DNA of 64,000 nucleotides, taken from assembly GCA_947174335.1 (NCBI GenBank), contig CAMWIM010000004.1, forward strand, positions 6,997 to 70,996. Direction: 5' to 3'. Shown here piece by piece: positions 6,991 to 53,762 of this stretch. Source of the DNA: an uncultured Porphyromonadaceae bacterium (GTDB lineage: Bacteria; Bacteroidota; Bacteroidia; Bacteroidales; Muribaculaceae). The notes under the pieces are model-generated. The model was not told the DNA's origin. It saw only the letters and a program-made list of their open reading frames with translations, and ran no database searches. A program made the position numbers and the translations under genes. Numbering within the stretch: position 1 is the first letter of the stretch; every line of letters begins with the position of its first letter.

Positions 6991-7012
6991 AGTTATCTTA
7001 GTTTAAAAAATT

Positions 7013-13803: not shown

Positions 13804-14343
13804 TTTCAGCCCCTTGAACTTTGCCGACTCGTATGCCCCGAGATCTTTACCGTCACGGATAACGTGCGCCGCTACAAATCGGTGTCCGCCTGCAAGTTGA
13901 GTGATAGTCAGCAGGTCACCTGTCATGATATTTTTGCTCCCTTTAACTCCATTGACAATAAACTGAGAGTCACCCAGATATGTGAGAAAAAATTCACGGT
14001 TAGGAGCGTATGCGATTCTGATTTGTGTTCCTTTTCCCAAGTCTTTCACTTCAATACAATCAATTGGAGTAAATAACGAAATATCAGCATCCTCGCCAAG
14101 TTCTTTTATCAGCGATTCATAGTCTTCACTACCAAGATAACGGGCGATTATGTCCATGGTCGAAAGGCGAGGCACAACCTTGTCGTTCTTGAAGCCAAAC
14201 AACCTTTTGAGTGTATTGACCCCCAGATGCTCGTGTGTGTTGTCTTTTATTGATTGAGATAACACCTCGAAATCGGCACTGCGGGTCATCCCCAAACCAA
14301 CCTTTTCACGCACTCTTCGGAGTATTTCGGTTTTATTAGTCAT
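13786..14343 (-). CDS. hypothetical protein
   Basis: 185-aa ORF. A minus-strand -7 box TATTTTTG lies just upstream (near 14368-14375). Converges on and overlaps the kinase gene by 18 nt. Confidence 0.5.
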   Translation of the reverse strand: MTNKTEILRRVREKVGLGMTRSADFEVLSQSIKDNTHEHLGVNTLKRLFGFKNDKVVPRLSTMDIIARYLGSEDYESLIKELGEDADISLFTPIDCIEVKDLGKGTQIRIAYAPNREFFLTYLGDSQFIVNGVKGSKNIMTGDLLTITQLAGGHRFVAAHVIRDGKDLGAYESAKFKGLKSVEIL

Positions 14344-14497
14344 GATTCTAACTTTTTAAACTTTGTGCAAAAATAATGGTTTCTTCTCAATTAGAGGTGC
14401 AATTGCGTTGAAATGGACGAAGTGGATGAGTCAAACGTGACGGAAATCAGCCATATATCTTGTAAATTTGTAGTGCCTAAATTAAAAATATGTAAAT

Positions 14498-14665
14498 ATG
14501 AAGGATTGGATGTGTTGGACACTGTTAGTCATCGGTGTAATTGCGATTGCCTGTGTATCCTATTGGTTATCTCATAATCTGCCGATTATGTGGAGTATAG
14601 GTACGACAATCTTTTGCAACTTTCTTGTCAGTTGCTATCTCACATTCCGGAAAAAGTGGTCGTGA
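14498..14665 (+). CDS. possible 55-aa two-TM small membrane protein (below the ORF-track cutoff)
   Basis: ATG at 14498, preceded by the -7 box taaatttg at 14463-14470. Translation is MKDWMCWTLLVIGVIAIACVSYWLSHNLPIMWSIGTTIFCNFLVSCYLTFRKKWS. Confidence 0.35.
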   Translation: MKDWMCWTLLVIGVIAIACVSYWLSHNLPIMWSIGTTIFCNFLVSCYLTFRKKWS

Positions 14666-18725: not shown

Positions 18726-20390
18726 ATGACTGAAAAAGAATTACAAACATATTTGCTAAAGAGATTTCCAAAGGAAGACTCGGGATGTGATTGGAAAGAA
18801 ATGAAAAATCTAAAAAATTCATTTGCCAACGATCCTCATAAAGATGTTATATCTTATCTTTCAGGTATCTCAAATATGGAAGGTGGGTATCTTGTTATTG
18901 GAGTAAAAGACGGAACTTTGGATATTGTAGGTACCGATTTGTCAAAATTCAATTTTAATTCTACTTCAGTAATATATAAAATGATTGAGATGTGTCCCAA
19001 TCTTCCGTCTGAAGGTCTTTTTGTTGAGGAGTATGTAACTTCTGATACTGATAAGACGGTGTGGATTATCAATATACCTAAACATCTACCGCGCCGCCCT
19101 GTATTTGCTCATAAGAAAGCGTGGCAAAGGATAGGGGACTCCCTTGTTGAGCTTACATCGGAACGTGAGAATGTCATATTGAACGAAGAGATCTTGCACT
19201 ATGATTGGTCTGCGGAAATCGTGGAGGATGCTGATTACACTGATCTTGATGTTTATGCAATTCAAAAAGCGTTGGATGGTTATTGTGAACGTTATCCTAA
19301 GAGAGCAGAAGAAGCTCGAAATTGGAGTATAGAAGTCTTTTTGGACAAAGCAAAGATTACAAAAAGCGGGAAAATAACTCGTACGGCATTACTTTTGCTT
19401 GGAAAAGAAGAGTCGGTTCATTATCTAAATCATCCTGCTGAGATGGTATGGAAACTTCAGACTGGGGAGGAACGAGCTGCCCAGATATTCTATCCGCCAT
19501 TCTTACTTACCGCTGTAAATCTACGAGCAGAAATAAGAAATTATCAAATAAAGATATTCCCCTCAAATGCATTGCTCCCATCTCCCGTGCCAAAGTATGA
19601 TCAGCGTACTCTTCTTGAAGCACTTCATAATTGTATTATGCATCAGGATTATACAAAGAAAGAACGTATAGTAGTGACCGAGACGGCTGATAGTGTGAGG
19701 TTTCAAAATGCAGGATCATTCTTTGAAGGGCGTTACTCAGACTATATTGAAGGCGAAAAGTCTCCTACAAAATATAGAAATGAATTTCTAAAAACGGCAA
19801 TGCTAAATCTTAATATGGTTGATAGTCAAGGGTTTGGAATTCACGATATGTTTGAACATCAGCGAAATCGTTATCTGCCTATGCCTGACTTCGAAAGATC
19901 CACAGAATCTCATGTTATTTTGGAAATACCCGGACAAGAAATTAATAAGGAATATTCTACTGCGTTGATGGAAAATTCAACACTTGATTTGACAACGGTA
20001 TTTCTTCTTGATAGGGTACAGAGAAATAAACCGATTAGTAAAGAGGCAAGAGATAGATTAAGGGAATTAAATCTGATAGAGGGTCGCCATCCTCATATTT
20101 TTATTAGTAGAAAGGTTGCTCAGCTTACTAATATGGAAGCTGAATATACCGATCTCAAGGGTTTTGACGATGAATATTACAAAGATCTTATTTTAAAATC
20201 AATTGGAGATCACAAAAGGCTTCGCAGAGATAAAATTGATAAGCTTTTGTATGGAAAACTTCCAAGTGCAATGAACGATCGACAAAAGAAGAATCATGTT
20301 GATTATCTTTTGAAAAGCCTTCGTAAGGCTGGAAAAATACACGTCGGGTCAAATAAGAACTGGGAGCTTGGTCCTGGGCAAGAGATATAA
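18726..20390 (+). CDS. AlbA_2 (Schlafen-like) + ATPase-like domain protein / putative DNA-binding regulator
   Basis: EDSGCDWKEMKN...SFAN...GGYLVIGVKDGTLDIVG matches the AlbA_2 signature. -7 box tatttttg at 18680-18687. Confidence 0.7.
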   Translation: MTEKELQTYLLKRFPKEDSGCDWKEMKNLKNSFANDPHKDVISYLSGISNMEGGYLVIGVKDGTLDIVGTDLSKFNFNSTSVIYKMIEMCPNLPSEGLFVEEYVTSDTDKTVWIINIPKHLPRRPVFAHKKAWQRIGDSLVELTSERENVILNEEILHYDWSAEIVEDADYTDLDVYAIQKALDGYCERYPKRAEEARNWSIEVFLDKAKITKSGKITRTALLLLGKEESVHYLNHPAEMVWKLQTGEERAAQIFYPPFLLTAVNLRAEIRNYQIKIFPSNALLPSPVPKYDQRTLLEALHNCIMHQDYTKKERIVVTETADSVRFQNAGSFFEGRYSDYIEGEKSPTKYRNEFLKTAMLNLNMVDSQGFGIHDMFEHQRNRYLPMPDFERSTESHVILEIPGQEINKEYSTALMENSTLDLTTVFLLDRVQRNKPISKEARDRLRELNLIEGRHPHIFISRKVAQLTNMEAEYTDLKGFDDEYYKDLILKSIGDHKRLRRDKIDKLLYGKLPSAMNDRQKKNHVDYLLKSLRKAGKIHVGSNKNWELGPGQEI

Positions 20391-40645: not shown

Positions 40646-41764
40646 CTATCGTTTTGAACTAGTTGAAAATCTTTTCTCAAATACATTATCTCTGTGGTAT
40701 TTAAGATACTCGATTCTTTTAGGATTTAGTAATTTTTTATCTAGTACAAAATTTGACAGGTATTTTTTCATATCATCATCTAAAGCATATGAAGGCATAA
40801 TTGTCCCATCATCAGAAAATGTAATATAGCCTAAGTCAAATAATGAGTCAAAAGCTTTATTTAAGAGTAGACCATTATTCAAATCAAATTGATCCGTAGA
40901 GCCATCGGTGCAATGACTATAGGGCTTAATATGAGAGGCAATAAGAACAGGGTGCGCTAATCCGTCCAACATACATTTAGGGGTCTTACATTTGTAATAT
41001 GAACAACTTTCCTCCTCAAGCTCTGATTTATAGACTCGTTGCAAGTACGGATCTCTTACTGCCTTTTTTTGTTTTTCATCGCCAAACAATCTATCAGCAT
41101 CCGTTTTGAAGTATATCATACCATCATGAATGCATAAGTCATCAAGGCGTCCTAATAAGTTTAGAAAATGTTCAATTTGATTATATTTTCTATCTATGAA
41201 GTCTATATCAGTTGCATTTTTATATAACCTATCTAGTTCTTCCTTGTTAAGAAATCCTTTTTTATATTTATTAATATCTGCATTCATAATTGCAATGAGA
41301 GCTCTTTTATCAAGAGCACCAACTTCTTCGAGAGTTTTCAATAAAAATTGGATTTGTTTAGTAGAATGACTTTCTGGTTCAGATATAGAATTTTGAAAAT
41401 TGCTATAACTATATACAATCTTAGATAAAATATTTGAACGTCGCCTATCAGTCTTAGCTTCAATATAGGATTTAGCCTCTGCATTATATCCTTGCATATT
41501 TGGCTTTAAAAAGCCAAGTTTAACCAATTGATTTATACCCTTCCTGGAAGAAGCGTCGGGCGAGTCTCCTTTAAACCCAATTGCATTAATAACCAAATCT
41601 TGTAATTTTTTATAGTCATCATCTTGGTAATTTTTTATACCATTTTCATCAAAATAATCTAAACAGGTCCGCAAACAGGTTAAAAATTTTTTACCATTTA
41701 AATCTGTCCAAGCAGCAGTATATTTCCAATATTCCTCGTATATTTGATTAACTCTATTTTTCAT
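40646..41764 (-). CDS. restriction endonuclease candidate with a C-terminal HNH nuclease domain
   Basis: ASHIKPYSHC....NGLLLNKAFDSLFDLGYITF is the HNH (PF13391-like) signature. 4-nt overlap with the upstream methyltransferase gene. Confidence 0.65.
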   Translation of the reverse strand: MKNRVNQIYEEYWKYTAAWTDLNGKKFLTCLRTCLDYFDENGIKNYQDDDYKKLQDLVINAIGFKGDSPDASSRKGINQLVKLGFLKPNMQGYNAEAKSYIEAKTDRRRSNILSKIVYSYSNFQNSISEPESHSTKQIQFLLKTLEEVGALDKRALIAIMNADINKYKKGFLNKEELDRLYKNATDIDFIDRKYNQIEHFLNLLGRLDDLCIHDGMIYFKTDADRLFGDEKQKKAVRDPYLQRVYKSELEEESCSYYKCKTPKCMLDGLAHPVLIASHIKPYSHCTDGSTDQFDLNNGLLLNKAFDSLFDLGYITFSDDGTIMPSYALDDDMKKYLSNFVLDKKLLNPKRIEYLKYHRDNVFEKRFSTSSKR

Positions 41765-42765
41765 AAATGTGTATCAATTAAAAATAAATATTCTATATCA
41801 TTCTTCTTTTTTTCTTTACCAGTAACACGGTATGCATAAGGCATTTCGTGTACAGCAATATCATTAGAAAAATGATTTAACAATTCCAACATTTCATCTT
41901 TAGAAGGCGTAGAACGGCTGTTATAACTTAACATCCAGTATCTATATTTAGAAAGTCTTGAAAATAATTCGTAGAAAAGATATTTGATATTTTTCTTGTC
42001 CATGAAGTTTTTATCAAAAGGCTTCACTTGTTCACCTTTTATATACGAATCAAGTAGCCCATAAAAGCCATAATAATCATTCATAGTTCCACTGTATGGC
42101 GGATCTAAATAAATAACATCTGCGTTGGTTATATTTATTGCATCAAAAATATCTAAATTGAGGGCTTTGTTATTTTTTTGATTATCAAATATAGCATTAT
42201 TATACTCATTTAAATTATCCTCAAAATGAAATCTAAATGTTTTATTATGATATGATCGTCGTCTGCCATATTTTGAATAACTTAAATCTTCATTCCTTAA
42301 CTCTACAATCTTATCCCAATTTATTGTAAAACGAGAGTATGGCATTTTTCTAATCATTGCTCTTCTAAGGAGAGCAAATGCTAGAGACTTTTTATATGGA
42401 TTTAAGAATGAATCAATGTTTTTACGAATTATATCAAGTTCCTTGCATTCGTCAGGATAATAAAATCGGTTAGAGTAATTATTAAACATAAATCCTTCGA
42501 TAGGCTCTCCACTAAATAGTTGGTCAACGTCATCTTTACTTAATAAAGTTTCATTATTTTCAATAAAGGCCTTTGCAATTTGAAAATTTATATTAAGTAT
42601 GTCGTTTGAAAAGACTTGAAGACCAAGTGTTTTAGCCTTGTAACTGACAGAGCAACCTCCCGAAAAGGCATCAAAAAATGAATTTGCATCGTGAGGGATT
42701 AATGATGCAATCCAATCTACAATCTTTTCTTTATTTCCAATATAATTTATGGTCGGATATTTCAT
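41761..42765 (-). CDS. N6-adenine DNA methyltransferase (D12/Dam-like class)
   Basis: INYIGNKEKI, FDAFSGGCS (FxGxG), IYLDPPY (motif IV). Confidence 0.8.
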   Translation of the reverse strand: MKYPTINYIGNKEKIVDWIASLIPHDANSFFDAFSGGCSVSYKAKTLGLQVFSNDILNINFQIAKAFIENNETLLSKDDVDQLFSGEPIEGFMFNNYSNRFYYPDECKELDIIRKNIDSFLNPYKKSLAFALLRRAMIRKMPYSRFTINWDKIVELRNEDLSYSKYGRRRSYHNKTFRFHFEDNLNEYNNAIFDNQKNNKALNLDIFDAINITNADVIYLDPPYSGTMNDYYGFYGLLDSYIKGEQVKPFDKNFMDKKNIKYLFYELFSRLSKYRYWMLSYNSRSTPSKDEMLELLNHFSNDIAVHEMPYAYRVTGKEKKKNDIEYLFLIDTHL

Positions 42766-43754
42766 TTATAAAGCATCTCTTTAATAGATTCAGCAATGCA
42801 ATATGCTAATTTAGGAGGAACGGAATTCCCAACCATTTGCTGTTGCTTTATGCTGTTCCCTAAAAAAATAAAGTTATCTGGGTAACTCTGAATTGCAGCA
42901 AGTTCTCGGACTGTCAACGCCCTATTTTGTGAATAATGAAAAACTTTTCTCATATCACCAGTAATACAAATAGATGGTTTTGTACTATCATAGCGAATAT
43001 ATTTTCTAATATCCCCTTTTTGAGGTCGAATTTCTTCTGGTATATCCATTCTTGAGCCACCATCTTTGACGTAACTCATTTTTTCAAGCATTTGGGAGGA
43101 GTGAGTCATTGCTTGATGATTTGGTATCAAGGAGTTTTGACCACTTTGTAATGGTGGATAGCAGTCAATAGCATCTTTGATAGTCATTTTAGAACCGCTG
43201 TGTTTTCGAGGAAATACTATATCAGTATCTATATTGTTCTTAATTCCTATAAATAAAACACGATATCTATTTTGTGGAACGCCAAAGTCTGACGCGCAAA
43301 CAATCTGAGCTTCAACCTTATATCCTACTTCTTCAAATCTTTTAATAATTTCAAACCTTGTAGAGCCATTAAGTCGAGTATATAATCGTGCGACATTTTC
43401 CATTACAAAACAAGTTGGTTTGACTATGTCTACAACTCGAACAAATTCTTTAAAAAGATTATTTCTTGGATCATCAAGGAACTTGCGACCTATATTTGAG
43501 GCCATACTAAACCCCTGACAAGGAGGGCCGCCTATAATTACATCAATTTTTCTACCATTAATTGCCTTTTTAATTTCATCACTTGTTAATTTTGTAATAT
43601 CAATTTCAAACAAATGATGATTAGGAAAGTTATAATTGTAGGTTCTACATATTTCATGATCATATTCAACTGAAAATATATTCTCAAATCCAGCCTTGTC
43701 AAAACCAAGAGAAAAGCCTCCTGATCCGGAAAATAAGTCAATGTATGTAGGCAT
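42762..43754 (-). CDS. C5-cytosine DNA methyltransferase
   Basis: DLFSGSGGFS (I), GGPPCQGFS (IV), ENV (VI), QNRYRV (VIII), GNSVPP (X). Confidence 0.9.
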   Translation of the reverse strand: MPTYIDLFSGSGGFSLGFDKAGFENIFSVEYDHEICRTYNYNFPNHHLFEIDITKLTSDEIKKAINGRKIDVIIGGPPCQGFSMASNIGRKFLDDPRNNLFKEFVRVVDIVKPTCFVMENVARLYTRLNGSTRFEIIKRFEEVGYKVEAQIVCASDFGVPQNRYRVLFIGIKNNIDTDIVFPRKHSGSKMTIKDAIDCYPPLQSGQNSLIPNHQAMTHSSQMLEKMSYVKDGGSRMDIPEEIRPQKGDIRKYIRYDSTKPSICITGDMRKVFHYSQNRALTVRELAAIQSYPDNFIFLGNSIKQQQMVGNSVPPKLAYCIAESIKEMLYK

Positions 43755-44012: not shown

Positions 44013-45332
44013 TCATGAGACAATAATACCTTTAGATTCCTCTGCTTTAGGATTATAGCTTTTCAACTCAACGTTCACAATGGTGTTGTCGAGTGAGTTG
44101 TCGGCAGGAACTTTAACTTTCAGATAGTTGTCGGTGAAACCCGAAAGAACGCCGGGGGTGCTTCCATGTTCGAGCAGTACCGGACGAACCGTATTGATAA
44201 AACGGGAGGTAAATTCGGTTAACTTTTTGTCTGACAGGTCGATCATTACCGCTGTACGACGATGTTTTTCAGTTTGATCGACAACGTGGTCAATTGAAAG
44301 TGCACGGGTGCCGGGACGCTCGGAGTAGGGGAACACGTGAAGTCGTGAAATGTCAAGCGATTCAACAAAGTCGCGTGACTTCTCGAATTCTTCGAGGGTT
44401 TCACCTCGGGTACCGACCATCAGGTCAACACCGATAAAAGCATCGGGCATCGCTTGTCTGATAAGCTCCATTTTATGACGGAAATGGGCTGTGTCATAGT
44501 GACGGTGCATCAGTTTCAGAACGGCATCAGAGCCCGCTTGCAACGGCACATGGAAATGGGGCATAAATCGGTGCGAGTTAGCTACAAAATCAATGATTTC
44601 CTCGCTGAGCAAATTCGGCTCGATTGACGATATGCGGTAACGGTCGATGCCGTCGATTTGGTCAAGCTCTTTGATGAGGTCAAGAAAATTTCGGTCAGTT
44701 CCTTTGCCAAAATCACCGATGTTGACGCCTGTAATCACAACTTCGCGCCCCCCCTCCTTTACAACCTGATTGACCTGCTCAACCATCGATTGGATAGAAC
44801 CCGAGCGGCTGCGTCCGCGAGCAATCGGGATGGTGCAGTATGTACACCAGTAGTCACACCCGTCTTGAACCTTCAAAAAATAGCGGGTGCGGTCACCGCG
44901 TGAGCATGACGGGGTGAACTTGGTAATTTCGCGAGACGGCGTGACAACGAGCTGTTGGTTACGTTGTTCAACCCATTTGTCAAGAAAGTCGGCAAGATTT
45001 TGCTTTTGGTCAGAACCGGCGACGATAGCGACCCCGTCGATAGAGGCAATTTCGCCCGGTTTGAGCTGAGCATAACAACCGGTAACAATTATCGGCGCAT
45101 TTGGATAGCGTTTGGCAAATGACCTTATAGCCTGACGGCATTTTTTGTCGGCAAGGTCGGTAACGCTGCAAGAGTTGATGACAACCAAGTCGGGTATCTC
45201 TCCCTCAGCGACACGTCTGATTCCCCTTTGCCTGAACATATTAGCCACAGTCGAGGTCTCGGCAAAGTTAAGTTTGCATCCAAACGTATGAAATAGCGCG
45301 GTCGCTATCCCTGATATAGTGTGATCGGTCAT
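44013..45332 (-). CDS. mtaB: tRNA (t6A37) methylthiotransferase MtaB (radical SAM)
   Basis: N-terminal UPF0004 domain (TFGCKLNFAE), radical-SAM CDYWCTYC, C-terminal TRAM-like domain. 439 aa. Confidence 0.85.
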   Translation of the reverse strand: MTDHTISGIATALFHTFGCKLNFAETSTVANMFRQRGIRRVAEGEIPDLVVINSCSVTDLADKKCRQAIRSFAKRYPNAPIIVTGCYAQLKPGEIASIDGVAIVAGSDQKQNLADFLDKWVEQRNQQLVVTPSREITKFTPSCSRGDRTRYFLKVQDGCDYWCTYCTIPIARGRSRSGSIQSMVEQVNQVVKEGGREVVITGVNIGDFGKGTDRNFLDLIKELDQIDGIDRYRISSIEPNLLSEEIIDFVANSHRFMPHFHVPLQAGSDAVLKLMHRHYDTAHFRHKMELIRQAMPDAFIGVDLMVGTRGETLEEFEKSRDFVESLDISRLHVFPYSERPGTRALSIDHVVDQTEKHRRTAVMIDLSDKKLTEFTSRFINTVRPVLLEHGSTPGVLSGFTDNYLKVKVPADNSLDNTIVNVELKSYNPKAEESKGIIVS

Positions 45333-45583: not shown

Positions 45584-45710
45584 ATTAAATATGCAGCCTA
45601 AAACCATATCTATGATATAGTGGAAGAAAACGATAAATCTCAAAATTACTCCACTCGAATAGTATTAAGAATTACATATAGTTAGCGTTATACATATTGT
45701 AATGATAAAT

Positions 45711-46403
45711 TTATTTAGGAGGTAGAATCTTAACAATGTGATGAAGCTCAATGTGCTCTTTCTTTGCGGCATTTAAAGCATATTTCAGTATGCGCATAAT
45801 GCCTGGGCTTCGTCTATGAATAGTCGATGGACTTAACCCCTGAAGATAGTTATTGATAGTGACATCACGAGTTAAAATATCTCTAATAATGGTTCCGTAA
45901 AATGGGTCTCTTAGAATTGACCTTGCTATAAATGCAGACTTATCATCCTCATTAAGTTCTTTATAAACATACCCAAAACAACTTAAATACCAGGAACTAT
46001 AATATTGAAATACCAGACCGAGCTGCTTAGATGTTTTTATTTGGTTTTCACCATACTTACGGAGTGCGTATTCCGTTTGACTCTTACAATAATGAGGAAA
46101 TAATCGACCAATTTCTTCAAATGAATAGCCGGGATTATCATTATCAGAAAGGATAGAACACATCTCTATTTCAGACGCAGAGAATGAGCTGCTTTGAGTC
46201 ATATCCTCTGTGCTAATTGGAGGGTAGTCCCAAGAAATAATGAAATAGAGAAATTCCTCGTAAGGAATATCGATAATACTCTTAACGTATTTTTTAAGCA
46301 TAGATATAGGGATGTTGTATGAATAATCATCCAACATCTTATCATTTACTTGATTCTCCAACGAACGGTAAAAGAAGGATTCTATCTTGCCTTGGTTATT
46401 CAA
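45711..46403 (-). CDS. hypothetical protein, last gene of the six-gene operon (possible HTH region)
   Basis: 8-nt overlap with the upstream gene. GYSFEEIGRLF...TEYALRKYGENQIKTSKQLGLV looks helix-turn-helix-like. No family recognised. Confidence 0.5.
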   Translation of the reverse strand: MNNQGKIESFFYRSLENQVNDKMLDDYSYNIPISMLKKYVKSIIDIPYEEFLYFIISWDYPPISTEDMTQSSSFSASEIEMCSILSDNDNPGYSFEEIGRLFPHYCKSQTEYALRKYGENQIKTSKQLGLVFQYYSSWYLSCFGYVYKELNEDDKSAFIARSILRDPFYGTIIRDILTRDVTINNYLQGLSPSTIHRRSPGIMRILKYALNAAKKEHIELHHIVKILPPK

Positions 46404-47382
46404 TAGACATCAGCGTTTTAAGTTGGGCATATAGTTTTTTCAACTCAGTATAAAGCCCCATATCGCTCAAATTTTCAAGAATAGCCGTGCTCTCGTTGGA
46501 TACCGCAATATTAAAGTTACGGATTTTGGCAGTGAGATTAGCTATTTTACTATCGCTCTCCACGAGTTCAACTGCCTCATCTAGTGACATTGTCTCATTG
46601 ATAAAGCCATTGATCGCTTCATCCGTGACCTCACTTTCAGAGCCGACAATCTTACCGACTTTTCTTAACTCACGAGCATCGGCAAATTTCCCGTCTTTGA
46701 TTCTTTCAAGAATGGTTTCTTTAATGGCTAACAGGGGATAGTTTTCATCTGCTCTTTGTATTGCGCCATTTTTAACAAACTCGTGATAGTAGCTCCATTT
46801 ATCACGCACGAGATCATCGTTTTGCTCCATAAGATCATAAGTGGCAATGTACTTATGAGCAGCAGAACGAGTAAGACCTAACTCATCAGCGATTGCATCA
46901 ACCTTTTTACGTGATGTCGTGATGCGCTTACGTAAATAAGCTGCTTGCTCAAAAGGAGACCAAGGAGTTTTCCCAATTATGTGCATGGTGCCAAGCAGAG
47001 AAAAAATCTGGTCAGCGGTTACTGATGAAGGAAGAAGGACTGCTCTAATGCTAGACCATTTAATGGGATCCTCATGCACGAGCAGGCGGTATGCAGCTAA
47101 ACGGCTGTTGCCTTCTAAAACTACACTATCTTTAACGAAGATAGGCTCAATGAGACCGCCATTAACCCTGATACTGTTTTTCAACTCCTTTACATGGTCA
47201 AGGGACTGCATCTTCTGCTCAATCTGCTCCTGTGTGGGATTATCACCAAATTCGGATTCGATAATGCTATTGATACGCGGGTTTTCAGGATAGTATTGTA
47301 GATCAACAATGCTGATGTCTGTTTCTACCGCCTCAACGATGCTGTTTTCAATGCGTATAAATTTCTTAGTCTCTTCCATCAT
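46396..47382 (-). CDS. ParB/Srx-like N-terminal domain protein (paralog 2)
   Basis: YYPENPRINS ... LKNSIRVNGGLIEPIFV...VVLEGNSRLAAY (ParB N-domain Arg-patch region). GKTPWSPFEQAAYL parallels GPRAWDPYSKAKYL in paralog 1. Confidence 0.7.
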   Translation of the reverse strand: MMEETKKFIRIENSIVEAVETDISIVDLQYYPENPRINSIIESEFGDNPTQEQIEQKMQSLDHVKELKNSIRVNGGLIEPIFVKDSVVLEGNSRLAAYRLLVHEDPIKWSSIRAVLLPSSVTADQIFSLLGTMHIIGKTPWSPFEQAAYLRKRITTSRKKVDAIADELGLTRSAAHKYIATYDLMEQNDDLVRDKWSYYHEFVKNGAIQRADENYPLLAIKETILERIKDGKFADARELRKVGKIVGSESEVTDEAINGFINETMSLDEAVELVESDSKIANLTAKIRNFNIAVSNESTAILENLSDMGLYTELKKLYAQLKTLMSIE

Positions 47383-48845
47383 TATTCAATGTTCAGTATG
47401 TTTCTTATAAGTTGAGCGAAACTGTAGTCCGCTTTTTTATGGTATTCAGAAATCGTGGTGTCTCCTTGCGCTAAAAAAGCGGCTTGTTGTTTTGCATACA
47501 ATAAGACATCGATCCATTCATCAATGCTATTCTCGACAATAAGATTGTAAATGTGACAATCTTTTTTTTGAGATAGGCGATGTATCCTATCCTGCGCTTG
47601 CAGATAATCATCTAGATTGAAACCTCGGTCATAAAAAATAGCATGATTAGCATTCGTCAATGTTAATCCCTCTTTTGCCGATTGGGGGGTGGCAAAGAGA
47701 ATCTGAGCATCACCAGATTTGAAAGCATTAACAGAATGGTTTCTGCTTTCCATATTCATTTTCCCCGTAATCTTTACCGAACGGAGAGATTTATATTTCT
47801 TAGAAAGTCTATCAATGTTATCCGTGAAAATGCTCCATACGATTACGCTTTCCTTATTCTCTACTATGGAATGAATTAACTCATCGAGTTTTGCTTCTTT
47901 GGCAGAAATAGCATCGTAAGAATCATCTAAAAGCGATGGATTCGAAGCGATTTGAACTAAGCGGAGTAATCGTTTAATTGCTTCTGGAGATTCATCAAGG
48001 ATGGTACTATCACCTTTAACAACGGATATTTGCATTTCCTTTCTTACTGTGTCATACATTTGGTGTTGTCGTTCCTCAAAGGGGACCGCAATTGTGTGAA
48101 CATACTTACTTGGTAAAGTAATGATCCCACTATTTTTTGTTTCTCGAACAGAGAAGGATCTAATCTTATCAAATATTGATGATACGCTATTTTCAAAGTA
48201 AGCCACCCTACTTTCATTATAACCTAAATCGTTGGATAAGTCACATTGGGTCTTAAATTCATTGAAATCCTCACCAAGACTCTTTCCCTGGTCTAAAAAG
48301 AATATTTGTGCCCAAATATCATACGGACGATTCGCAACTGGGGTGCCGGTCATTATAACTCTACGCTTAAAGTAAGGTGAAAGTTCAAAGAAATCTTTAG
48401 TAAGTTTCGAGTCGGGATTCTTAATCTTTGTAGATTCATCTATTATTATGCCAACGTTCCTAGTTTGAAGAAATAGCTTTATTCTCTCTTTTTCTCCGCT
48501 AATTGTTTCAAAATTGGTAACAATCAATCTTGTCGGACTATTAAACACGAAGAAGTTATCCCCTTTTCTGGAAGTCAAAATGTCGGGACGTAAGGATGTA
48601 TGGTTTTTAATCTCTGAGAGCCAATTAAATACTAATGTCTTTTTTGTAACTATTATAACGGTGTCTATAGAACTCTGAAGCCAGTAAAGAAGAATATCAA
48701 TCGCAATTTTAGTCTTTCCGAGACCTTGCTCATGGAAGATTGCACCATACTCTAAATCTTTAATGGCATCCACTGCCTCAGTTTGATACTTAAAGGCATC
48801 AAACTTAGTGGAGTAATCAAATATTTCATCGTAAATTACAGACAT
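47382..48845 (-). CDS. SNF2-family helicase/translocase (core only, 487 aa)
   Basis: GLGKT (I), IIIDESTKIKN (II), MTGTPVANRPYDIW (III), QAQDRIHRLSQ (VI). Confidence 0.85.
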   Translation of the reverse strand: MSVIYDEIFDYSTKFDAFKYQTEAVDAIKDLEYGAIFHEQGLGKTKIAIDILLYWLQSSIDTVIIVTKKTLVFNWLSEIKNHTSLRPDILTSRKGDNFFVFNSPTRLIVTNFETISGEKERIKLFLQTRNVGIIIDESTKIKNPDSKLTKDFFELSPYFKRRVIMTGTPVANRPYDIWAQIFFLDQGKSLGEDFNEFKTQCDLSNDLGYNESRVAYFENSVSSIFDKIRSFSVRETKNSGIITLPSKYVHTIAVPFEERQHQMYDTVRKEMQISVVKGDSTILDESPEAIKRLLRLVQIASNPSLLDDSYDAISAKEAKLDELIHSIVENKESVIVWSIFTDNIDRLSKKYKSLRSVKITGKMNMESRNHSVNAFKSGDAQILFATPQSAKEGLTLTNANHAIFYDRGFNLDDYLQAQDRIHRLSQKKDCHIYNLIVENSIDEWIDVLLYAKQQAAFLAQGDTTISEYHKKADYSFAQLIRNILNIE

Positions 48846-49255
48846 AAGATCTCGGTGTTAGTGTTGTCTGATAACAGATGAAACGTTACATCCTTTACAT
48901 TATGCTTTTCAATGAGTAAATTAACGTAGTTGAAAAGAGAGCAGAATGCGATGAATGGTACGCATAATACTATGTGGCGTTCTCCGTCAAACAGTTTTAC
49001 CTCCTCAATATAAGAAAGTATTTGGTCTTGAGTGTGTGGATTTATCAGGTCGTTTTCGGTCTTTGCTTCACCTATAATAATAGCTTTAGGATCTTTATAG
49101 AATACATCCGGATAGAAGCCCCCAACTACACGACTAGTACGAGTGTTGTAATTGTCAAGATCGGCTTCAATGAAGTCTACACAACAATACGGTATAGTTT
49201 CAAGATATGAAACTATACTCCTTACAAGTTGTTTGTGTAGCCTACTTTCAGCCAT
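48836..49255 (-). CDS. small PD-(D/E)xK nuclease-fold protein
   Basis: FYPDVFYKDPKAIIIGEAKT gives PD-x12-E-A-K, the classic restriction-endonuclease-like motif. Overlaps both neighbouring genes. Confidence 0.55.
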   Translation of the reverse strand: MAESRLHKQLVRSIVSYLETIPYCCVDFIEADLDNYNTRTSRVVGGFYPDVFYKDPKAIIIGEAKTENDLINPHTQDQILSYIEEVKLFDGERHIVLCVPFIAFCSLFNYVNLLIEKHNVKDVTFHLLSDNTNTEILCL

Positions 49256-50282
49256 TTTGGATTTCGCGGATATTTTCTAGTATGATATTCAGTTGGCTTT
49301 CGAGCGATTGAAGATGATAGACTCGTTCACTAGCTTCACTACTATCATCAGTTGCTAATCTCTTAATTTCAGATATGGAGGGTTCGCTTGAGATGAGTTT
49401 CTTGTATAGTTGAGAGACTAATACATAGTATGGGTATTTGCTCAAGTCGGCAGAGTCTAATTCTGCCGCAAAAATTATTTTTTCGGCTTCTCCCAGATTC
49501 GTATGTAGGAATTTCGCTCTGGCTTCATCATTGGCTAAGACCTTAGGCAGAATACGGACCCTTTGGGCAGTGTCTATATTACCTTCGGCAACCCACTCGG
49601 CAAAAATTGATAAATCAAACCCCGCCTTTCTTATGCTGTATTGGATTGCGTTGTTCTGAAATTCATGGAATTTAGAAAACTCCCGAATATCAAAACGCCT
49701 GTTTCGTTTTGAACTGACATAAGGTCGGTAGTATGTCTCCATATACTGGTAAGCAGCTATACTTCGCTGAATTTCTGTTTTGCCTCCTCCGCATAAGGAG
49801 ATTATAGTATTGAGAGGCATGTGCTCTACCTCACTCAATTGCCAAAGATATTTGGCTTTCGAGTAAGGATCCCAAGCTCGAGGGCCAACGAGATGAGATT
49901 GCAATCGAACCTCATGCTTTTTCTCATTCTCAAGTCGGTCATAAACAATCGCAGGGATTCTATCCCATAGTCCTGAACTATCATTCTTTTGGAACTCTTT
50001 ATAAATCTGAAGACGAGTATTGCCTTCGATAGCAACATACGTTCCATCTTCTTCTAAAGAAACTATAATGGGATGTATAATACCGCCACATTTCTTAATA
50101 GAATCTCTCAAAGATGTATAAGAGGTGGTAGCATCCTGCGTATTTGAGCTATTAGATAACGCAAGAGCAATATGCACCGAGGCAATCTCCTCCCTTGGAT
50201 AGTTGTCAAGATAATTCTTGATACGCGGATTGTCTATATCAAGGCGTATCAGCGATATGTCTAAATTCTCGTGACGTGGCAT
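49248..50282 (-). CDS. ParB/Srx-like N-terminal domain protein (paralog 1)
   Basis: LIRLDIDNPRIKN ... LRDSIKKCGGIIHPIIV...YVAIEGNTRLQIY. Confidence 0.7.
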   Translation of the reverse strand: MPRHENLDISLIRLDIDNPRIKNYLDNYPREEIASVHIALALSNSSNTQDATTSYTSLRDSIKKCGGIIHPIIVSLEEDGTYVAIEGNTRLQIYKEFQKNDSSGLWDRIPAIVYDRLENEKKHEVRLQSHLVGPRAWDPYSKAKYLWQLSEVEHMPLNTIISLCGGGKTEIQRSIAAYQYMETYYRPYVSSKRNRRFDIREFSKFHEFQNNAIQYSIRKAGFDLSIFAEWVAEGNIDTAQRVRILPKVLANDEARAKFLHTNLGEAEKIIFAAELDSADLSKYPYYVLVSQLYKKLISSEPSISEIKRLATDDSSEASERVYHLQSLESQLNIILENIREIQNG

Positions 50283-50284
50283 AA

Positions 50285-51673
50285 CTATTCAGATTTAAGC
50301 CATAGATTCGGGTTTACCAAATCTCTTAGGCGAAGATTAAAGAGTCGTAGTAATTCTTTCTTATGGGATGAGAAGCGTTCCAAAAATGAGATAATGGTTT
50401 TTAAGGGCAATGATATTTTTTTATCAGTATAATAACCATTATTAAAGTCAACTATAAACTCCTCATAAGATTTTATAGGAGTCACTTTTAATCCTAGAGT
50501 ACGTTCCTCCCAAAAAGTTTGGTTTCTATAACAAAATTCCCAAAAGGACATTTTTTTGTAAAAAGCAGGCTGGTTACACCAGCGTGCAATCTGAACATAA
50601 ATGTTTTGGAGTTCATGATTGTGGTAATCTTCATGGCGCATAATATAGCCTAGACAGCCATATTTCATAAGTACTTCTATACGATAAAATATTTCCTTAA
50701 TATCTTTAAGCAATAAATCATCATCGTTAGAATTTAACTTATAACCGCAGAAAAGATAAAATTTTGTTTCTTTTTTATTATATCGTTTCCAAATTTTTAA
50801 TGCTTTCTCAATTTTGGGCCTATCAGACCAATTGTCAAAAGCAAAAATATAATCGCCATGATATTTACATTGTGATAACAACTCTGCAATTTCTTCTCCA
50901 TATGGACTTTCAGCTAAGATACGTTCATCCAAACCTTGCCTAAATTGAAAAGGTCGTCTTGTTTCCATTAACTCCTTTAGAAGTGGTCGCCATATTGAAG
51001 GAGAAGAAGCCAAAAAGTTATCATCCCATAAATAAATATAAGGACGTTTTAGTCTTCCTTTTTCATCTTTTTCATCACTCAAAAACCATTGAATTTTAGA
51101 ATAAGGAAGGATTCTATTCTCAAAACGATTTACACAAAATGGGCATTTGCGGAAACACCCTCTGGTAAGGAATCCAATAGAGTACTGAAGATAATCTTTA
51201 TAATACGATTTCTTTCGTCCTGCTGCAATTCGCTTTTCTATGTATGGAACGTATAGATCATAGAATGGCATCTGATGAGCCATTGAAATGCCCATCTCTT
51301 TGCCATCTCTCATATTTGGATAGCGATTCAAGAATGGGTCATTTTCAAGTTGCATCATATCTACAGAACGATATTGCCTAAATCCCATTTCGTTTTCATT
51401 TAATGCGTAAAACCCAGTACCACCCCAGCGAAAACGAGATTCTTTTCCTTTCTTTTCCTCCTGACTTCTATTAAAAAACTTAGGATCTTTGGTAAATGAA
51501 AAAACCTTACTAATATATATAAGATGAAATTCCGAGATGTCTTCATTCTCAGATTCAATTAATCTAAATTCGATATTATGATCATTAAGAAAACCAGCAA
51601 GTTTAAGCAATGCGAGGTTAGGATGGCGGGTTCCGCCATCCAATAGATCTGCATCGACTAAACCAATTTTCAT
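50285..51673 (-). CDS. radical SAM protein with an N-terminal Rossmann/B12-binding-like domain
   Basis: TRGCFRKCPFC is CxxxCxFC, with the aromatic residue expected before the third Cys. The N-terminus MKIGLVDADL...NLALLKLAGFL resembles class-B radical SAM N-domains. Confidence 0.7.
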   Translation of the reverse strand: MKIGLVDADLLDGGTRHPNLALLKLAGFLNDHNIEFRLIESENEDISEFHLIYISKVFSFTKDPKFFNRSQEEKKGKESRFRWGGTGFYALNENEMGFRQYRSVDMMQLENDPFLNRYPNMRDGKEMGISMAHQMPFYDLYVPYIEKRIAAGRKKSYYKDYLQYSIGFLTRGCFRKCPFCVNRFENRILPYSKIQWFLSDEKDEKGRLKRPYIYLWDDNFLASSPSIWRPLLKELMETRRPFQFRQGLDERILAESPYGEEIAELLSQCKYHGDYIFAFDNWSDRPKIEKALKIWKRYNKKETKFYLFCGYKLNSNDDDLLLKDIKEIFYRIEVLMKYGCLGYIMRHEDYHNHELQNIYVQIARWCNQPAFYKKMSFWEFCYRNQTFWEERTLGLKVTPIKSYEEFIVDFNNGYYTDKKISLPLKTIISFLERFSSHKKELLRLFNLRLRDLVNPNLWLKSE

Positions 51674-52059
51674 TATGTATCTTTGAACTATGCAATTTTA
51701 CATTCATCGACCCCCTGATGAATATATAGATACAAAAAAAGCGCAGGATCCGTACTTGTTACTCGTCCTGCTGCTAAAGGCCTTCGCATTGCCCGAAATA
51801 GTAGAACGAGCAACGCAGAGCCTACGCCGTATGAATATATTATACACCATAGTAGACTATATTATAGATATAATCAACCAATGGGTACACATCATACCCG
51901 AAGACATCTACAGTTGCTTCATTCTCGACTATTTCTTAAGAGGTTGCGAAGTTCTTAGCAGCCAAGAATTAAGCGAAAGTAAACGCTTTTGAAATATGTT
52001 TTAAACCCACCCATCCGACGGATAATTTCGTCATCGGCGTAGATTTCACTGCAAAATTA
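51674..52059 (-). promoter_or_regulatory. structured 5' leader, copy C (in front of the six-gene operon)
   Basis: The -7 box TAATTTTG is the rc of 52052-52059. Small hairpin at 51972-51987. Box gttgcgaagtt at 51943-51953. Long hairpin at 51741-51827 with apex aggccttcgcattgcc at 51778-51793. U7 is the rc of 51734-51740. Confidence 0.7.
51734..51827 (-). terminator. terminator-like long hairpin + U7 inside leader C
   Basis: GCGCAGG (51741-47) pairs with CCTACGC (51821-27), with a G.U pair only if read on the minus strand. Inner stem gttactcgt/acgagcaac. Followed on the minus strand by UUUUUUU. Confidence 0.6.
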
Positions 52060-52200
52060 CAAATAATATTGGGACAATCAATATTTTATCTTAAGAATTA
52101 TATATTAATACACTCTTGGTCTAAAATATGTGTTTTAGTGGCTATGAGATAAATAAACATTACGTTTTTGAGGGGATAAAAGCTCGATTTTCACTGTCTT

Positions 52201-53418
52201 TTACTTCTCTTTCCTCGTGATCGAGGCAATGGTTGCGGTGGCGAGCCCGACGAGGAAAATTGAGAGGGCGACGATGACGATGTCGGAGAGTTTGAGGGCG
52301 ACTGGATAGCTGTCGATAGCGAGGGTGCCGGTCATGGAAGCATTCCCGAGCCCTATTAAGCCGAACTGTTGTTGGAGCCCGACGAGGATGACCCCCAAAA
52401 TTAAACCGATGATACCTCCACCGATAGAGATTAAAAGCCCTTGAATTGCATAAATGCCGCGTATCATCGACGGCGATGCACCGAGCGACATAAGTGTTTG
52501 TGTATTACTTTGTTTCTCGATGATGAGCATCGACATTGTCGAGATGATGTTGAATGAGGCGATTATGAGTATAAAGGCGAGCATGAGAAAGGTTATCCAC
52601 TTCTCAATCGAAATCATTTTAAATGAATCGGCTTGTTGTTCAAGTCGGTTTTTGACGGTCAAACCTTCGGGAAGTTCGGCTTGTATCTCGGCTTGCAGTT
52701 TGTCGGTTTTGTCATCGTCGGGATAGATGCAGATTGTTGATGCTTCGTTTTCATAATCGAGCAGTGAGCGGACAACGTCAATGTCAACCATGATGACGTC
52801 AGTGTCATACATTTCTTGCTCAACTTGCCAAACGCCGCTGATATAGAGCGTGTCGCTACGGAATGAGGATTCGGGCACGGCGGTTGAAATTTTACCGACA
52901 CGACGTGGTACAAACAACATCATCCATTTGCCGTCATTGGGTCGTATGTCAAGATTGATGGCGACACCGACACTCGACAGGGCGGTGTAGGGCGCAACAT
53001 CGCTGATTTGGGTAGTACCGTCAATCGTGATTGCCTTTATATCAGCATTTTGCACAAAATCGCGACTGACGCCCATAACATTGACTGTCATTTGATGTCC
53101 GCTTGACGATGCAAGAGCCTGTTCTTTGAGGACAGACGAGACTCTGACACCTGCAAATTGTTCTGAAATAACTTTGGCAAGGCTGTCGGCATTCTCGATA
53201 ACTTTGCCTGTATCGGGCACAATTGCCAGTGGCGGGTCAATGCGCGACAACTGCTTCATCGCAAGGTCGCTGAACCCGTTGAAGACCGATAAAACCACAA
53301 TCAATGCCGTTGTGGCTACAGCGATTCCTGCCACCGATATCATCGAAATGACATTGACAGCATTATGTCTTTTGGGAGAAAAAAGATAGCGGATTGCTAT
53401 CAGAAACTGTAGCCTCAT
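52201..53418 (-). CDS. LolC/LolE-like FtsX-family ABC transporter permease
   Basis: MRLQFLIAIRYLFSPKRHNAVNVISMISVAGIAV is the typical LolE N-terminus. Four TM segments plus a periplasmic loop. Confidence 0.8.
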   Translation of the reverse strand: MRLQFLIAIRYLFSPKRHNAVNVISMISVAGIAVATTALIVVLSVFNGFSDLAMKQLSRIDPPLAIVPDTGKVIENADSLAKVISEQFAGVRVSSVLKEQALASSSGHQMTVNVMGVSRDFVQNADIKAITIDGTTQISDVAPYTALSSVGVAINLDIRPNDGKWMMLFVPRRVGKISTAVPESSFRSDTLYISGVWQVEQEMYDTDVIMVDIDVVRSLLDYENEASTICIYPDDDKTDKLQAEIQAELPEGLTVKNRLEQQADSFKMISIEKWITFLMLAFILIIASFNIISTMSMLIIEKQSNTQTLMSLGASPSMIRGIYAIQGLLISIGGGIIGLILGVILVGLQQQFGLIGLGNASMTGTLAIDSYPVALKLSDIVIVALSIFLVGLATATIASITRKEK

Positions 53419-53762
53419 TATTTCTTATCGGCGTCAAGGAGCGCGTCGATTTTTTCGATATAATCGAGCGAATCATCGAGATGGAATGAGAGTTCGGGCG
53501 TTTTTCTCAACTGAAATCTCACTTTTTGAGCAAGTTCATAACGGATTGTACGGGCATTTCGGTTAATGCTGTCAATCATTTCGGCACCTTTATCAGACGG
53601 GAAAACCGAGAGATAGGCGCGGGCAATGCTGAGGTCGGGCGAAACTTTCACCGAGCTTACCGATACGATTACGCCATGAGTTTTGGCGGTTTGCTGACGG
53701 AAAATTTCACTTAATTCTTTTTGAATGAGTCTTGATATTTTTGCTTGACGAGTTGATTCCAT
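53418..53762 (-). CDS. rbfA: ribosome-binding factor A
   Basis: 114 aa. RQAKISRLIQKELSEIF...VSVSSVKVSPDLSIARAYLSVF is the RbfA signature. Confidence 0.85.
   Translation of the reverse strand: MESTRQAKISRLIQKELSEIFRQQTAKTHGVIVSVSSVKVSPDLSIARAYLSVFPSDKGAEMIDSINRNARTIRYELAQKVRFQLRKTPELSFHLDDSLDYIEKIDALLDADKK

Follow-up and report, generated by a model that had tools for sequence, protein, structure and literature searches.

The gene at positions 50285 to 51673 of the window (the whole 64,000-nucleotide stretch analysed here, positions 6,997 to 70,996 of contig CAMWIM010000004.1, GenBank assembly GCA_947174335.1, from an uncultured Porphyromonadaceae bacterium) encodes a very divergent but genuine member of the radical S-adenosylmethionine (radical SAM) superfamily, as judged from its motif and its fold. 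In bacteria, relatives of this enzyme are the first gene of operons that continue with one of five types of module, most of them homologous to known restriction-type defence systems, and other relatives are carried by phages amid DNA methyltransferase genes. The reading that we favour, and to which we give an even chance, makes the enzyme a radical SAM "writer" that works on DNA and provides exchangeable restriction modules with their self mark. A bolder form of this idea, that it is the first radical SAM DNA writer, producing a new mark (neither methyl nor phosphorothioate) which is read by at least five restriction machines and has been copied by hundreds of gut and rumen phages for use against restriction, is put forward more tentatively, and we incline slightly against it. 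We infer that DNA is the substrate, that the system follows a self-mark logic, and what its partner proteins do; the connections with defence and with action on DNA come from genomic context. On the favoured reading, the system would follow restriction-modification logic, but with a kind of modification enzyme that has no precedent.

The gene lies on the minus strand (51673..50285), the plus-strand translation of the same interval being full of stop codons, and its product of 462 amino acids (aa) starts with MKIGLVDADL. It is the first gene of a compact six-gene operon on the minus strand, in the following order:

50285..51673, minus strand: radical SAM-type enzyme, 462 aa (motif, AlphaFold model, conservation); 2-nucleotide (nt) gap to the next gene
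49248..50282, minus strand: ParB/Srx-like protein 1, 344 aa, with an EGNTR motif (weak PF02195 match); 8-nt overlap with the next gene
48836..49255, minus strand: small PD-(D/E)xK-type nuclease candidate, 139 aa (invariant motif); 10-nt overlap with the next gene
47382..48845, minus strand: minimal SNF2-family ATPase/translocase, 487 aa (PF00176, PF00271); 1-nt overlap with the next gene
46396..47382, minus strand: ParB/Srx-like protein 2, 328 aa (TIGR00180, PDC-M38A); 8-nt overlap with the next gene
45711..46403, minus strand: p230, 230 aa, without assigned family (AlphaFold model, fusions); last gene of the operon

A first-pass annotation, made from the sequence alone, had described a 462-aa protein with TRGCFRKCPFC about 170 residues in and the N-terminus MKIGLVDADL...NLALLKLAGFL, leading a nuclease/helicase operon. 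All of this holds, with the precision that the gene is on the minus strand and is the first of six.

The cysteine motif reads T170-R-G-C173-F-R-K-C177-P-F-C180, that is, CX3CX-Phi-C with an aromatic residue (F179) preceding the last cysteine. Loss of the triad in orthologues, which the first-pass annotation had named as grounds for abandoning the assignment, is not seen: the triad and the aromatic residue are kept in all full-length relatives, bacterial (79/79) as well as viral (75/75), and in 77 of the 81 representatives of at least 330 aa. Three other motifs are counted as invariant, DDN (217-219), QGLDxR (246-251) and FAFD (277-280). In alignments reaching down to about 32% identity, residues C173, C177, C180, F179, N219, Q246 and F277-A278-F279 are conserved at 90% or more, D217-D218, G247/D249/R251, D280 and R331 are invariant, and column entropy at the beta2 to beta5 strand motifs is 0.08-0.24 bits.

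The predicted fold agrees with this picture. An AlphaFold2 model built from 38 sequences (pLDDT 88.3, pTM 0.82) shows an N-terminal Rossmann-like domain (approximately residues 1-110) made of four strands (2-7, 35-38, 51-55 and 81-83) separated by helices, a variable stretch (linker or insert, about residues 60-135), and then a partial triosephosphate isomerase (TIM) barrel core of six beta-alpha units (strands 164-167, 212-215, 242-244, 276-278, 304-309 and 341-346), with the cysteine loop following the first strand. The best Foldseek match in the PDB is the cobalamin-dependent OxsB (E 4e-5, probability 1.0), followed by AprD4 (likewise probability 1.0), with HemN lower and generic TIM barrels making up the remainder. 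OxsB (5UL4) and AprD4 (6FD2, a cobalamin-independent look-alike) share with our enzyme the Rossmann-like N-domain, the partial TIM barrel and the CX3CX2C loop, although both belong to antibiotic biosynthesis, whereas the present family is found in defence or phage DNA-modification contexts. These matches bear out the earlier proposal that the protein has the layout of cobalamin-domain radical SAM enzymes. Against viral models, the best named matches are radical SAM, COG1032 "Fe-S oxidoreductase" and MiaB-like proteins (E 2e-8 to 9e-5, the radical SAM models with probability 1.0), the two top matches being unnamed.

The family is large. A word-indexed search gave more than 4386 clusters at 90% identity, and an exhaustive profile search 1378 representatives at 50% identity. 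The enzyme matches phrog_9298, "radical SAM domain protein", in PHROGs (4.8e-34), and one close relative is called "radical SAM protein" by NCBI; the radical SAM profile PF04055 is found below threshold in 24 of 38 distant relatives (best 2.3e-5). There is no curated match to the enzyme in Pfam, NCBIfam or PADLOC, and a single-sequence search and two profile searches of the PDB gave no meaningful sequence match. The enzyme thus falls in no curated radical SAM subgroup, and no well-characterised metabolic subgroup, for which a profile search had been advised, claims it. This lack of a match, together with the position of the motif 170 residues in, behind an extra domain, also agrees with the earlier statement that the protein differs from viperins and QueE. 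Viperins and Ophion OpnA are likewise radical SAM enzymes in anti-phage contexts, but they have no N-terminal Rossmann-like domain, are recognised by standard profiles and have different partners.

The most telling evidence on function comes from the neighbourhoods of bacterial relatives. We collected 80 genomic loci, mostly from Bacteroidales with some labelled Clostridia, Lachnospiraceae, Kiritimatiellia and Akkermansia, and clustered the neighbouring open reading frames (ORFs); individual loci are designated below by L and a number, and the counts exclude the window, which is an additional example of type A. In every locus the enzyme gene comes first, and what follows belongs to one of five module types, two loci being left unclassified:

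Type A, 11 loci: ParB, nuclease, SNF2, ParB, p230
Type B, 36 loci: NERD/UvrD-like helicase, a 795-aa protein without assigned family, DrmA (1e-177), DrmB (6e-17)
Type C, 17 loci: DndF (5e-93), DndG (7e-43), DndH (E 0)
Type D, 12 loci: enzyme::p230 fusion or pair, PbeA (7e-206), PbeC (6e-83), small protein
Type E, 2 loci: McrB-like AAA_5 protein and DUF2357/PDDEXK_7 (McrC-like) protein
Unclassified, 2 loci

In a neighbour-joining tree of the enzymes, the module types are intermingled, which means that head gene and modules have been recombined many times; near-identical enzymes, for example, head DndFGH in L018 and L022 but DrmAB in L021 and L023. Three further contexts, reached through homologues of ParB-like 1, have the same six-gene order as the window, with enzymes 37-66% identical to ours and the triad kept. 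The coupling to ParB-like proteins on which the first-pass annotation had based its proposal is therefore real in type A, but it is not specific to ParB, because the family also heads DndFGH, DrmAB, PbeAC and McrBC-like modules.

Characterised relatives of the modules work with a modification partner (DndABCDE, the DISARM methyltransferases, the LlaJI methyltransferases). Within -6 to +9 kb of the enzyme, no conserved Dnd modification gene (DndA-E) occurs in the 80 loci, and there is no conserved methyltransferase either: a crude motif scan matched 9 of the 80 bacterial loci, mostly in ORFs that are not methyltransferases, against 39 of 80 viral loci that served as positive control. Apart from the enzyme, the operons have no conserved gene in the place of such a partner. 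In the Dnd and DndCDEA-PbeABCD comparison, relatives of the enzyme stand directly upstream of a full DndF/G/H set or of PbeA/PbeC, which is the slot of the modification module, while DndA-E, a PP-loop enzyme and a cysteine desulfurase are all missing from the enzyme operons. The window operon itself has no Dnd matches, and as for Pbe only weak PbeA matches on the SNF2 motor (3e-13, 8e-6). The comparison with DISARM is similar. DrmA and DrmB homologues follow the enzyme in the most numerous group (36/80 loci), but type B is without a methyltransferase and DrmC, having the NERD/UvrD helicase and the 795-aa protein instead; the window has no DrmA or DrmB, and its SNF2 protein is only distantly DrmD-like (64.7 bits against a 950-bit cut-off). 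With Dpd, the shared logic is that of a writer aided by a ParB-like protein (DpdA with DpdB) and accompanied by restriction genes that include the SNF2 protein DpdE; the window operon, however, is far smaller, has no DpdA/tRNA-guanine transglycosylase-like gene or preQ0 pathway, and matches DpdE in the motor only. In the full text of open-access PMC and bioRxiv articles, we found neither this enzyme family described, its members in phage modification clusters included, nor any association of it with Dnd, DISARM, Pbe or ParB modules; the defence radical SAM systems found in that literature are viperin-like only, Ophion OpnA being a different, viperin-like enzyme.

The proteins encoded downstream in the window operon are recognised with different degrees of certainty. 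The SNF2 protein is the clearest (PF00176 5e-28, PF00271 1e-17); its PADLOC matches, ZorD (6e-41) and DpdE (7e-39), concern the motor domain only, and its sequence matches in the PDB are ISW1, Ino80 and the Sulfolobus SNF2 core 1z63. ParB-like 1, which adjoins the radical SAM gene in all type A loci, matches PF02195 below threshold (E 0.007), as does the other ParB-like protein (E 0.053), and PF02195 is precomputed for most of the listed homologues of ParB-like 1 (2213 in all); in PADLOC, it matches PDC-M38A (6e-7) and PD-Lambda-5_A (1e-3). ParB-like 2 is a paralogue of it (23-30% identity, with tblastn cross-matches), has a helix-turn-helix-like segment near residue 160, and matches TIGR00180 (2e-4) and PDC-M38A of PADLOC (2e-9). 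We regard ParB-like 1 as a candidate DNA clamp, nucleoside triphosphatase or mark sensor. The 139-aa protein has no family match in Pfam, NCBIfam or PADLOC, and its motif PD(V/I)...IIGEAKT, a PD-(D/E)xK nuclease signature, is invariant in 11 orthologues.

The last protein, p230, is modelled with confidence (pLDDT 92.8) as an all-helical protein with one beta-hairpin, winged-helix-like. It has no match in Pfam, NCBIfam or PADLOC, and a fold search of the PDB gave nothing below E 0.4, with faint winged-helix-like resemblances only. It is found in 27 of the 80 loci, and in type D loci it forms a C-terminal extension of the radical SAM enzyme, in fusion proteins of about 704 aa. We read it as the putative DNA-binding partner of the enzyme, from these fusions rather than from its fold. 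As a separate observation, p230 is sometimes present as two tandem paralogues, and it also forms the N-terminal module of larger proteins (L007 8074-9771, L075 15299-16525, L056/L076 15275-16912, L171 10889-13288) whose C-termini are an S24 LexA-type peptidase, sigma-70 region 2/4-like, or unannotated.

In the model that we favour, the enzyme would place a covalent self mark on DNA by means of the 5'-deoxyadenosyl radical derived from SAM, helped on DNA by the ParB-like proteins and by p230 as a DNA-binding adaptor. The two ParB/Srx-like proteins would be DNA clamps or mark sensors (roles for which DpdB with DpdA, DndB, and the DUF262 domain of SspE provide analogies), the SNF2 protein would be a translocase and the 139-aa protein a nuclease, and the ParB-like proteins, nuclease and SNF2 protein together would form the restriction half, scanning DNA and cutting it where unmarked. 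The enzyme itself would be a portable writer, joined repeatedly in evolution to at least five restriction-type modules, and phages would use shorter copies of it to mark their own DNA and so escape restriction.

The last point rests on the viral relatives. These were found by tblastn in 15 GenBank phage records and 299 IMG/VR stretches, and most of them are shorter than the bacterial enzymes (about 350-400 aa). In 80 viral loci, the neighbours include a fusion of ParB_N with an N6/N4 methyltransferase (32 loci), an amidoligase (phrog_2443; 23), a protein with a SAM-synthetase N-domain (18) and a C5 DNA methyltransferase (16), and also commonly terminase subunits, a phosphoadenosine phosphosulfate (PAPS) reductase and further DNA methyltransferases. 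The SAM-synthetase-like gene that adjoins the phage relatives in 18 of these 80 loci is no more than an indirect hint that the family may cleave SAM. A methyltransferase gene lies directly upstream of the relative in Oscillospiraceae phage NatCom_21982, a ParB gene adjoins it in a Methanomassiliicoccales virus, and a ParB gene follows distant relatives as well. Two isolated Bacteroides phages, BI-TP1 and LoVEphage, carry relatives, the order in BI-TP1 being PAPS reductase, methyltransferase, DUF551, radical SAM, methyltransferase. Members of phrog_9298 are thus embedded in orphan DNA-modification clusters of phages, next to the terminase, and such clusters are the usual home of phage DNA-modification (anti-restriction) genes. 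Because the phage copies stand without the bacterial downstream modules, the enzyme appears to work independently of them.

This autonomy bears on a quite different explanation, namely that the enzyme is a sensor or regulator, either an Fe-S or SAM-level sensor or an activase that switches the modules (for instance by modifying a partner protein). A common first gene before varied defence modules is also the pattern of BrxR-type regulators, and p230 is in some loci joined to an S24 domain of LexA type or to a sigma-70 region 4 domain, both of them common in regulators. We nevertheless consider this explanation quite unlikely, since the stand-alone phage copies would have no target, and since the triad is universal and the catalytic-looking core so extremely conserved (0.08-0.24 bits).

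The same viral neighbourhoods could be read to mean that the enzyme is an eraser or converter, which removes or transforms base modifications of phage DNA, or methylated bases, so that the nucleases can act. Spore photoproduct lyase shows that methyl groups of DNA are within reach of radical SAM enzymes, the methyltransferases that flank the phage gene could provide the substrate, and one of the bacterial contexts is McrBC-like, a modification-dependent type. Yet an eraser of phage marks would harm the phage that carries it, the bacterial operons have no methyltransferase of the kind that such a pathway requires, and a converter (hypermodification upon a methylated base) would amount to a form of the writer model. 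We therefore hold this to be a shade less probable again than a sensor or regulator.

The first-pass annotation saw no clear cobalamin-binding motif, correctly so, as the enzyme has neither a DxHxxG motif nor a match to PF02310. H17 is replaced by phenylalanine in most distant relatives; S55 and G84-G85 are conserved, with a spacing that resembles that of the SxL...GG motif. OxsB-type enzymes bind cobalamin without a histidine ligand, so the present enzyme might use it even so. Upstream of the gene, a SAM or cobalamin riboswitch that might have hinted at the cofactor gave no Rfam match at E <= 1. Outside the triad, no cysteines that could serve an auxiliary cluster are conserved in distant relatives, and there is no match to PF00919 (UPF0004), whereas the MtaB of the same window, taken as control, shows both UPF0004 and TRAM. 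Of the chemistries suggested earlier, methylthiolation is consequently disfavoured, there being no conserved cysteine for an auxiliary [4Fe-4S] cluster. On the same sequence grounds sulfur insertion appears disfavoured, although DndFGH and Pbe are linked to phosphorothioates elsewhere. The enzyme could functionalise a C-H bond of a base or sugar, methylate its target if it binds cobalamin, or form an adenosyl or other adduct. The DNA side of the more general proposal, radical chemistry on DNA or nucleotides, is strengthened by the variety of restriction modules and by the methyltransferase context in phages.

The nucleotide side of that proposal leads to another possibility, that the enzyme is an effector making an antiviral nucleotide analogue (viperin-like or oxetanocin-like) which poisons phage replication, the modules being independent of it or cooperating with it. 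The best structural match, OxsB, rearranges deoxyadenosine phosphates, some phage relatives lie near ThyX, nucleoside deoxyribosyltransferase or nucleotide pyrophosphohydrolase genes, and radical SAM nucleotide modifiers are known in defence (viperins, Ophion OpnA). Such an effector would, however, be an odd cargo for hundreds of phages, beside DNA methyltransferases and terminase; no partner phosphatase or kinase is conserved; the p230 fusion and the pairing with ParB point to DNA; and the downstream modules are DNA-restriction machines, which need discrimination between self and non-self. We judge this possibility unlikely.

Several observations weigh against a DNA-directed writer, or against parts of its basis. 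The assignment to the superfamily is not seconded by the standard profile, as PF04055 gives the window enzyme E 0.95 and 10 bits (residues 169-186), compared with a cut-off of 29.5 bits, whereas the MtaB of the same window scores 5.5e-21. In an hhalign comparison, the family profile is not significantly similar to this MtaB (probability 0.2), even with the cysteine motifs in register. The fold matches have low TM-scores (0.41-0.44), with 10-13% identity to OxsB and AprD4. The enzyme itself has no DNA-binding domain, and OxsB, its best fold match, acts on free deoxyadenosine nucleotides (dAMP, dADP, dATP), not on DNA. The protein p230 is absent from 53 of the 80 loci, including all those of DndFGH type. 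The methyltransferase scan was a crude motif search near the loci, and genes elsewhere in these genomes could be the partners. Finally, DndFGH has been argued to act on its own, without a modification partner (PMC10853773), so that the missing methyltransferase does not force the role of "writer" upon the enzyme.

If the writer model is right, radical SAM chemistry would join methylation, phosphorothioation and 7-deazaguanine among the ways of labelling genomes, and an undiscovered DNA modification would be present in abundant gut Bacteroidales and in their phages. It would bear on the puzzle of DndFGH, Pbe and DISARM-like modules without known modification genes, some "orphan" DndFGH or DISARM-like loci having a modification partner after all. 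The mark could also escape or confound methylome calling, and be a barrier to genetic manipulation and to phage therapy in gut anaerobes. Should the idea of a DNA mark be wrong, a large and catalytically intact-looking family tied to five types of defence module would still need a function. The carriers come from gut, rumen and sediment taxa, which are anaerobes, and this fits an oxygen-sensitive enzyme. With cultured carriers (Paraprevotella clara YIT 11840, of DndFGH type, Parabacteroides segnis BX2, of DrmAB type, Bacteroides ndongoniae Marseille-P3108, of Pbe type, Dysgonomonas sp. 520 and Prevotella sp. tc2-28) and isolated phages at hand, the question is directly testable.

The operon of the window is part of a cassette that appears to have moved. 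Its G+C content is 35-39%, against 44-47% in the flanks, and core genes border it on both sides: LolE/FtsX-like and RbfA genes (52201-53762) and, opposite them, the gene of an MtaB-type methylthiotransferase (44013-45332). A 6.4-kb block of the window (45671-52074) recurs in a second Muribaculaceae locus, L002, at another chromosomal site with different flanks. A 15-nt direct repeat marks the edges of the cassette:

45665..45679, plus strand: 15-nt direct repeat TTAAGAATTACATAT, at the 3' edge of the 6.4-kb cassette
52091..52105, plus strand: 15-nt direct repeat TTAAGAATTATATAT, at the 5' edge of the cassette

The repeat, TTAAGAATTA(C/T)ATAT, occurs twice in 64 kb, compared with 0.03 copies expected by chance, and coincides with the edges of the homology with L002, which itself lacks it; it may be an insertion scar or a recombination site. 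Within the shared block, the five downstream genes are 97-100% identical in DNA, while the 5' two-thirds of the enzyme gene (window 50897-51584, L002 10080-10770) are only 47-78% identical. This comparison of two sequences indicates that the enzyme allele has probably been replaced recently by recombination, as would be expected for a component under arms-race pressure. We also considered a hypervariable specificity domain in the variable N-terminal segment and see no clear sign of one, as the entropy there is that of ordinary loop variability with no hypervariable block.

Such mobility could suggest that the cassette serves a mobile element (in maintenance, partition or DNA processing) and not defence, the enzyme being a housekeeping function of that element. 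Besides the low G+C content, the direct repeats and the different chromosomal sites in related genomes, it can be pointed out that ParB-like proteins are classic partition proteins, and that in the Muribaculum chromosome CP021421.1 (L168), which we take to be that of M. intestinale YL27, the type A operon is carried by an element with an integrase, a Mob_Pre relaxase and a primase. There is, however, no ParA partner and no parS-like array, the alternative modules are textbook defence systems (DndFGH, DrmAB, PbeAC, McrBC-like), and the copy in the window lies beside another restriction-modification island, as is typical of defence islands. We regard a non-defence role as highly improbable.

In the Muribaculum locus L168, a DDE transposase gene lies just upstream of the enzyme gene, and the SNF2 gene (12832-14582) has been truncated by insertion of a transposase gene (insertion sequence), leaving 332 aa followed by a DUF772 gene. 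In another locus (L034 4144-7535), a radical SAM operon of DrmAB type comes right after RbfA and LolE homologues, the same neighbourhood as that of the window cassette, which suggests that the RbfA/LolE region is a shared insertion hot spot for different versions of the system.

The neighbouring restriction-modification set of the window (40646-43754, minus strand) forms a separate island of very low G+C content (31-34%) with a classical composition:

42762-43754, minus strand: C5 cytosine methyltransferase
41761-42765, minus strand: Dam-like D12 N6-adenine methyltransferase
40646-41764, minus strand: HNH_2 endonuclease

Only mtaB lies between this island and the cassette, so that the region is a defence-island hot spot. 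The two methyltransferases (41761-43754) were considered as partners of the operon and rejected: they have their own HNH nuclease, they are located beyond a core gene, and they are absent beside the near-identical cassette of L002.

Between the edge of the cassette and the enzyme gene, there is a conserved leader element:

51726..52059, minus strand: promoter-like TAATTTTG (52052-52059) and a conserved leader of about 320 nt, which ends at a U-tract before the start codon of the enzyme

From five copies, RNAalifold predicts a small 5' hairpin and one giant imperfect hairpin of about 125 bp with a GC clamp and the U-tract; of 108 pairs, 25 show compensatory double changes, and many are G-U. The sense strand folds at -111.8 kcal/mol (z -6.8) and the antisense strand at -81.6 kcal/mol (z -4.4). 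The leader, which has no match in Rfam, is also present in L001, L002, L052, L071, L190 and L232 and in about 36 metagenome loci (L179-L258). It is whole in 38 of 80 metagenome loci fetched by a 17-mer, and only two of these 38 adjoin a radical SAM gene. Elsewhere, it precedes varied operons on the same strand, some of them defence-like (NERD-methyltransferase-like and UvrD helicase genes). The leader probably regulates the enzyme operon, but the idea that it is specific to the radical SAM system is ruled out, because it also stands before unrelated operons; it has the look of a leader or attenuator RNA family of Muribaculaceae-type genomes that has not been described before. A 100-aa ORF on the plus strand (51690-51992) was discarded as a gene, because it overlaps this conserved structured leader and the indels are not multiples of three.

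Two further observations concern genes upstream of the enzyme. A gene of the Schlafen AlbA_2/HATPase_c_4 type is found just upstream of it in L011, L014, L015, L018, L065, L069, L080 and L168; the window has such a gene at 18726-20390 (plus strand), in another patch of low G+C content. A small ORF of about 90-115 aa without family match (for example L018 9675-9950) is present in 16 loci of types B, C and D, though not in the window. In 15 of these 16, it directly precedes the enzyme gene in the same orientation, and it could encode a further small subunit or a regulator.

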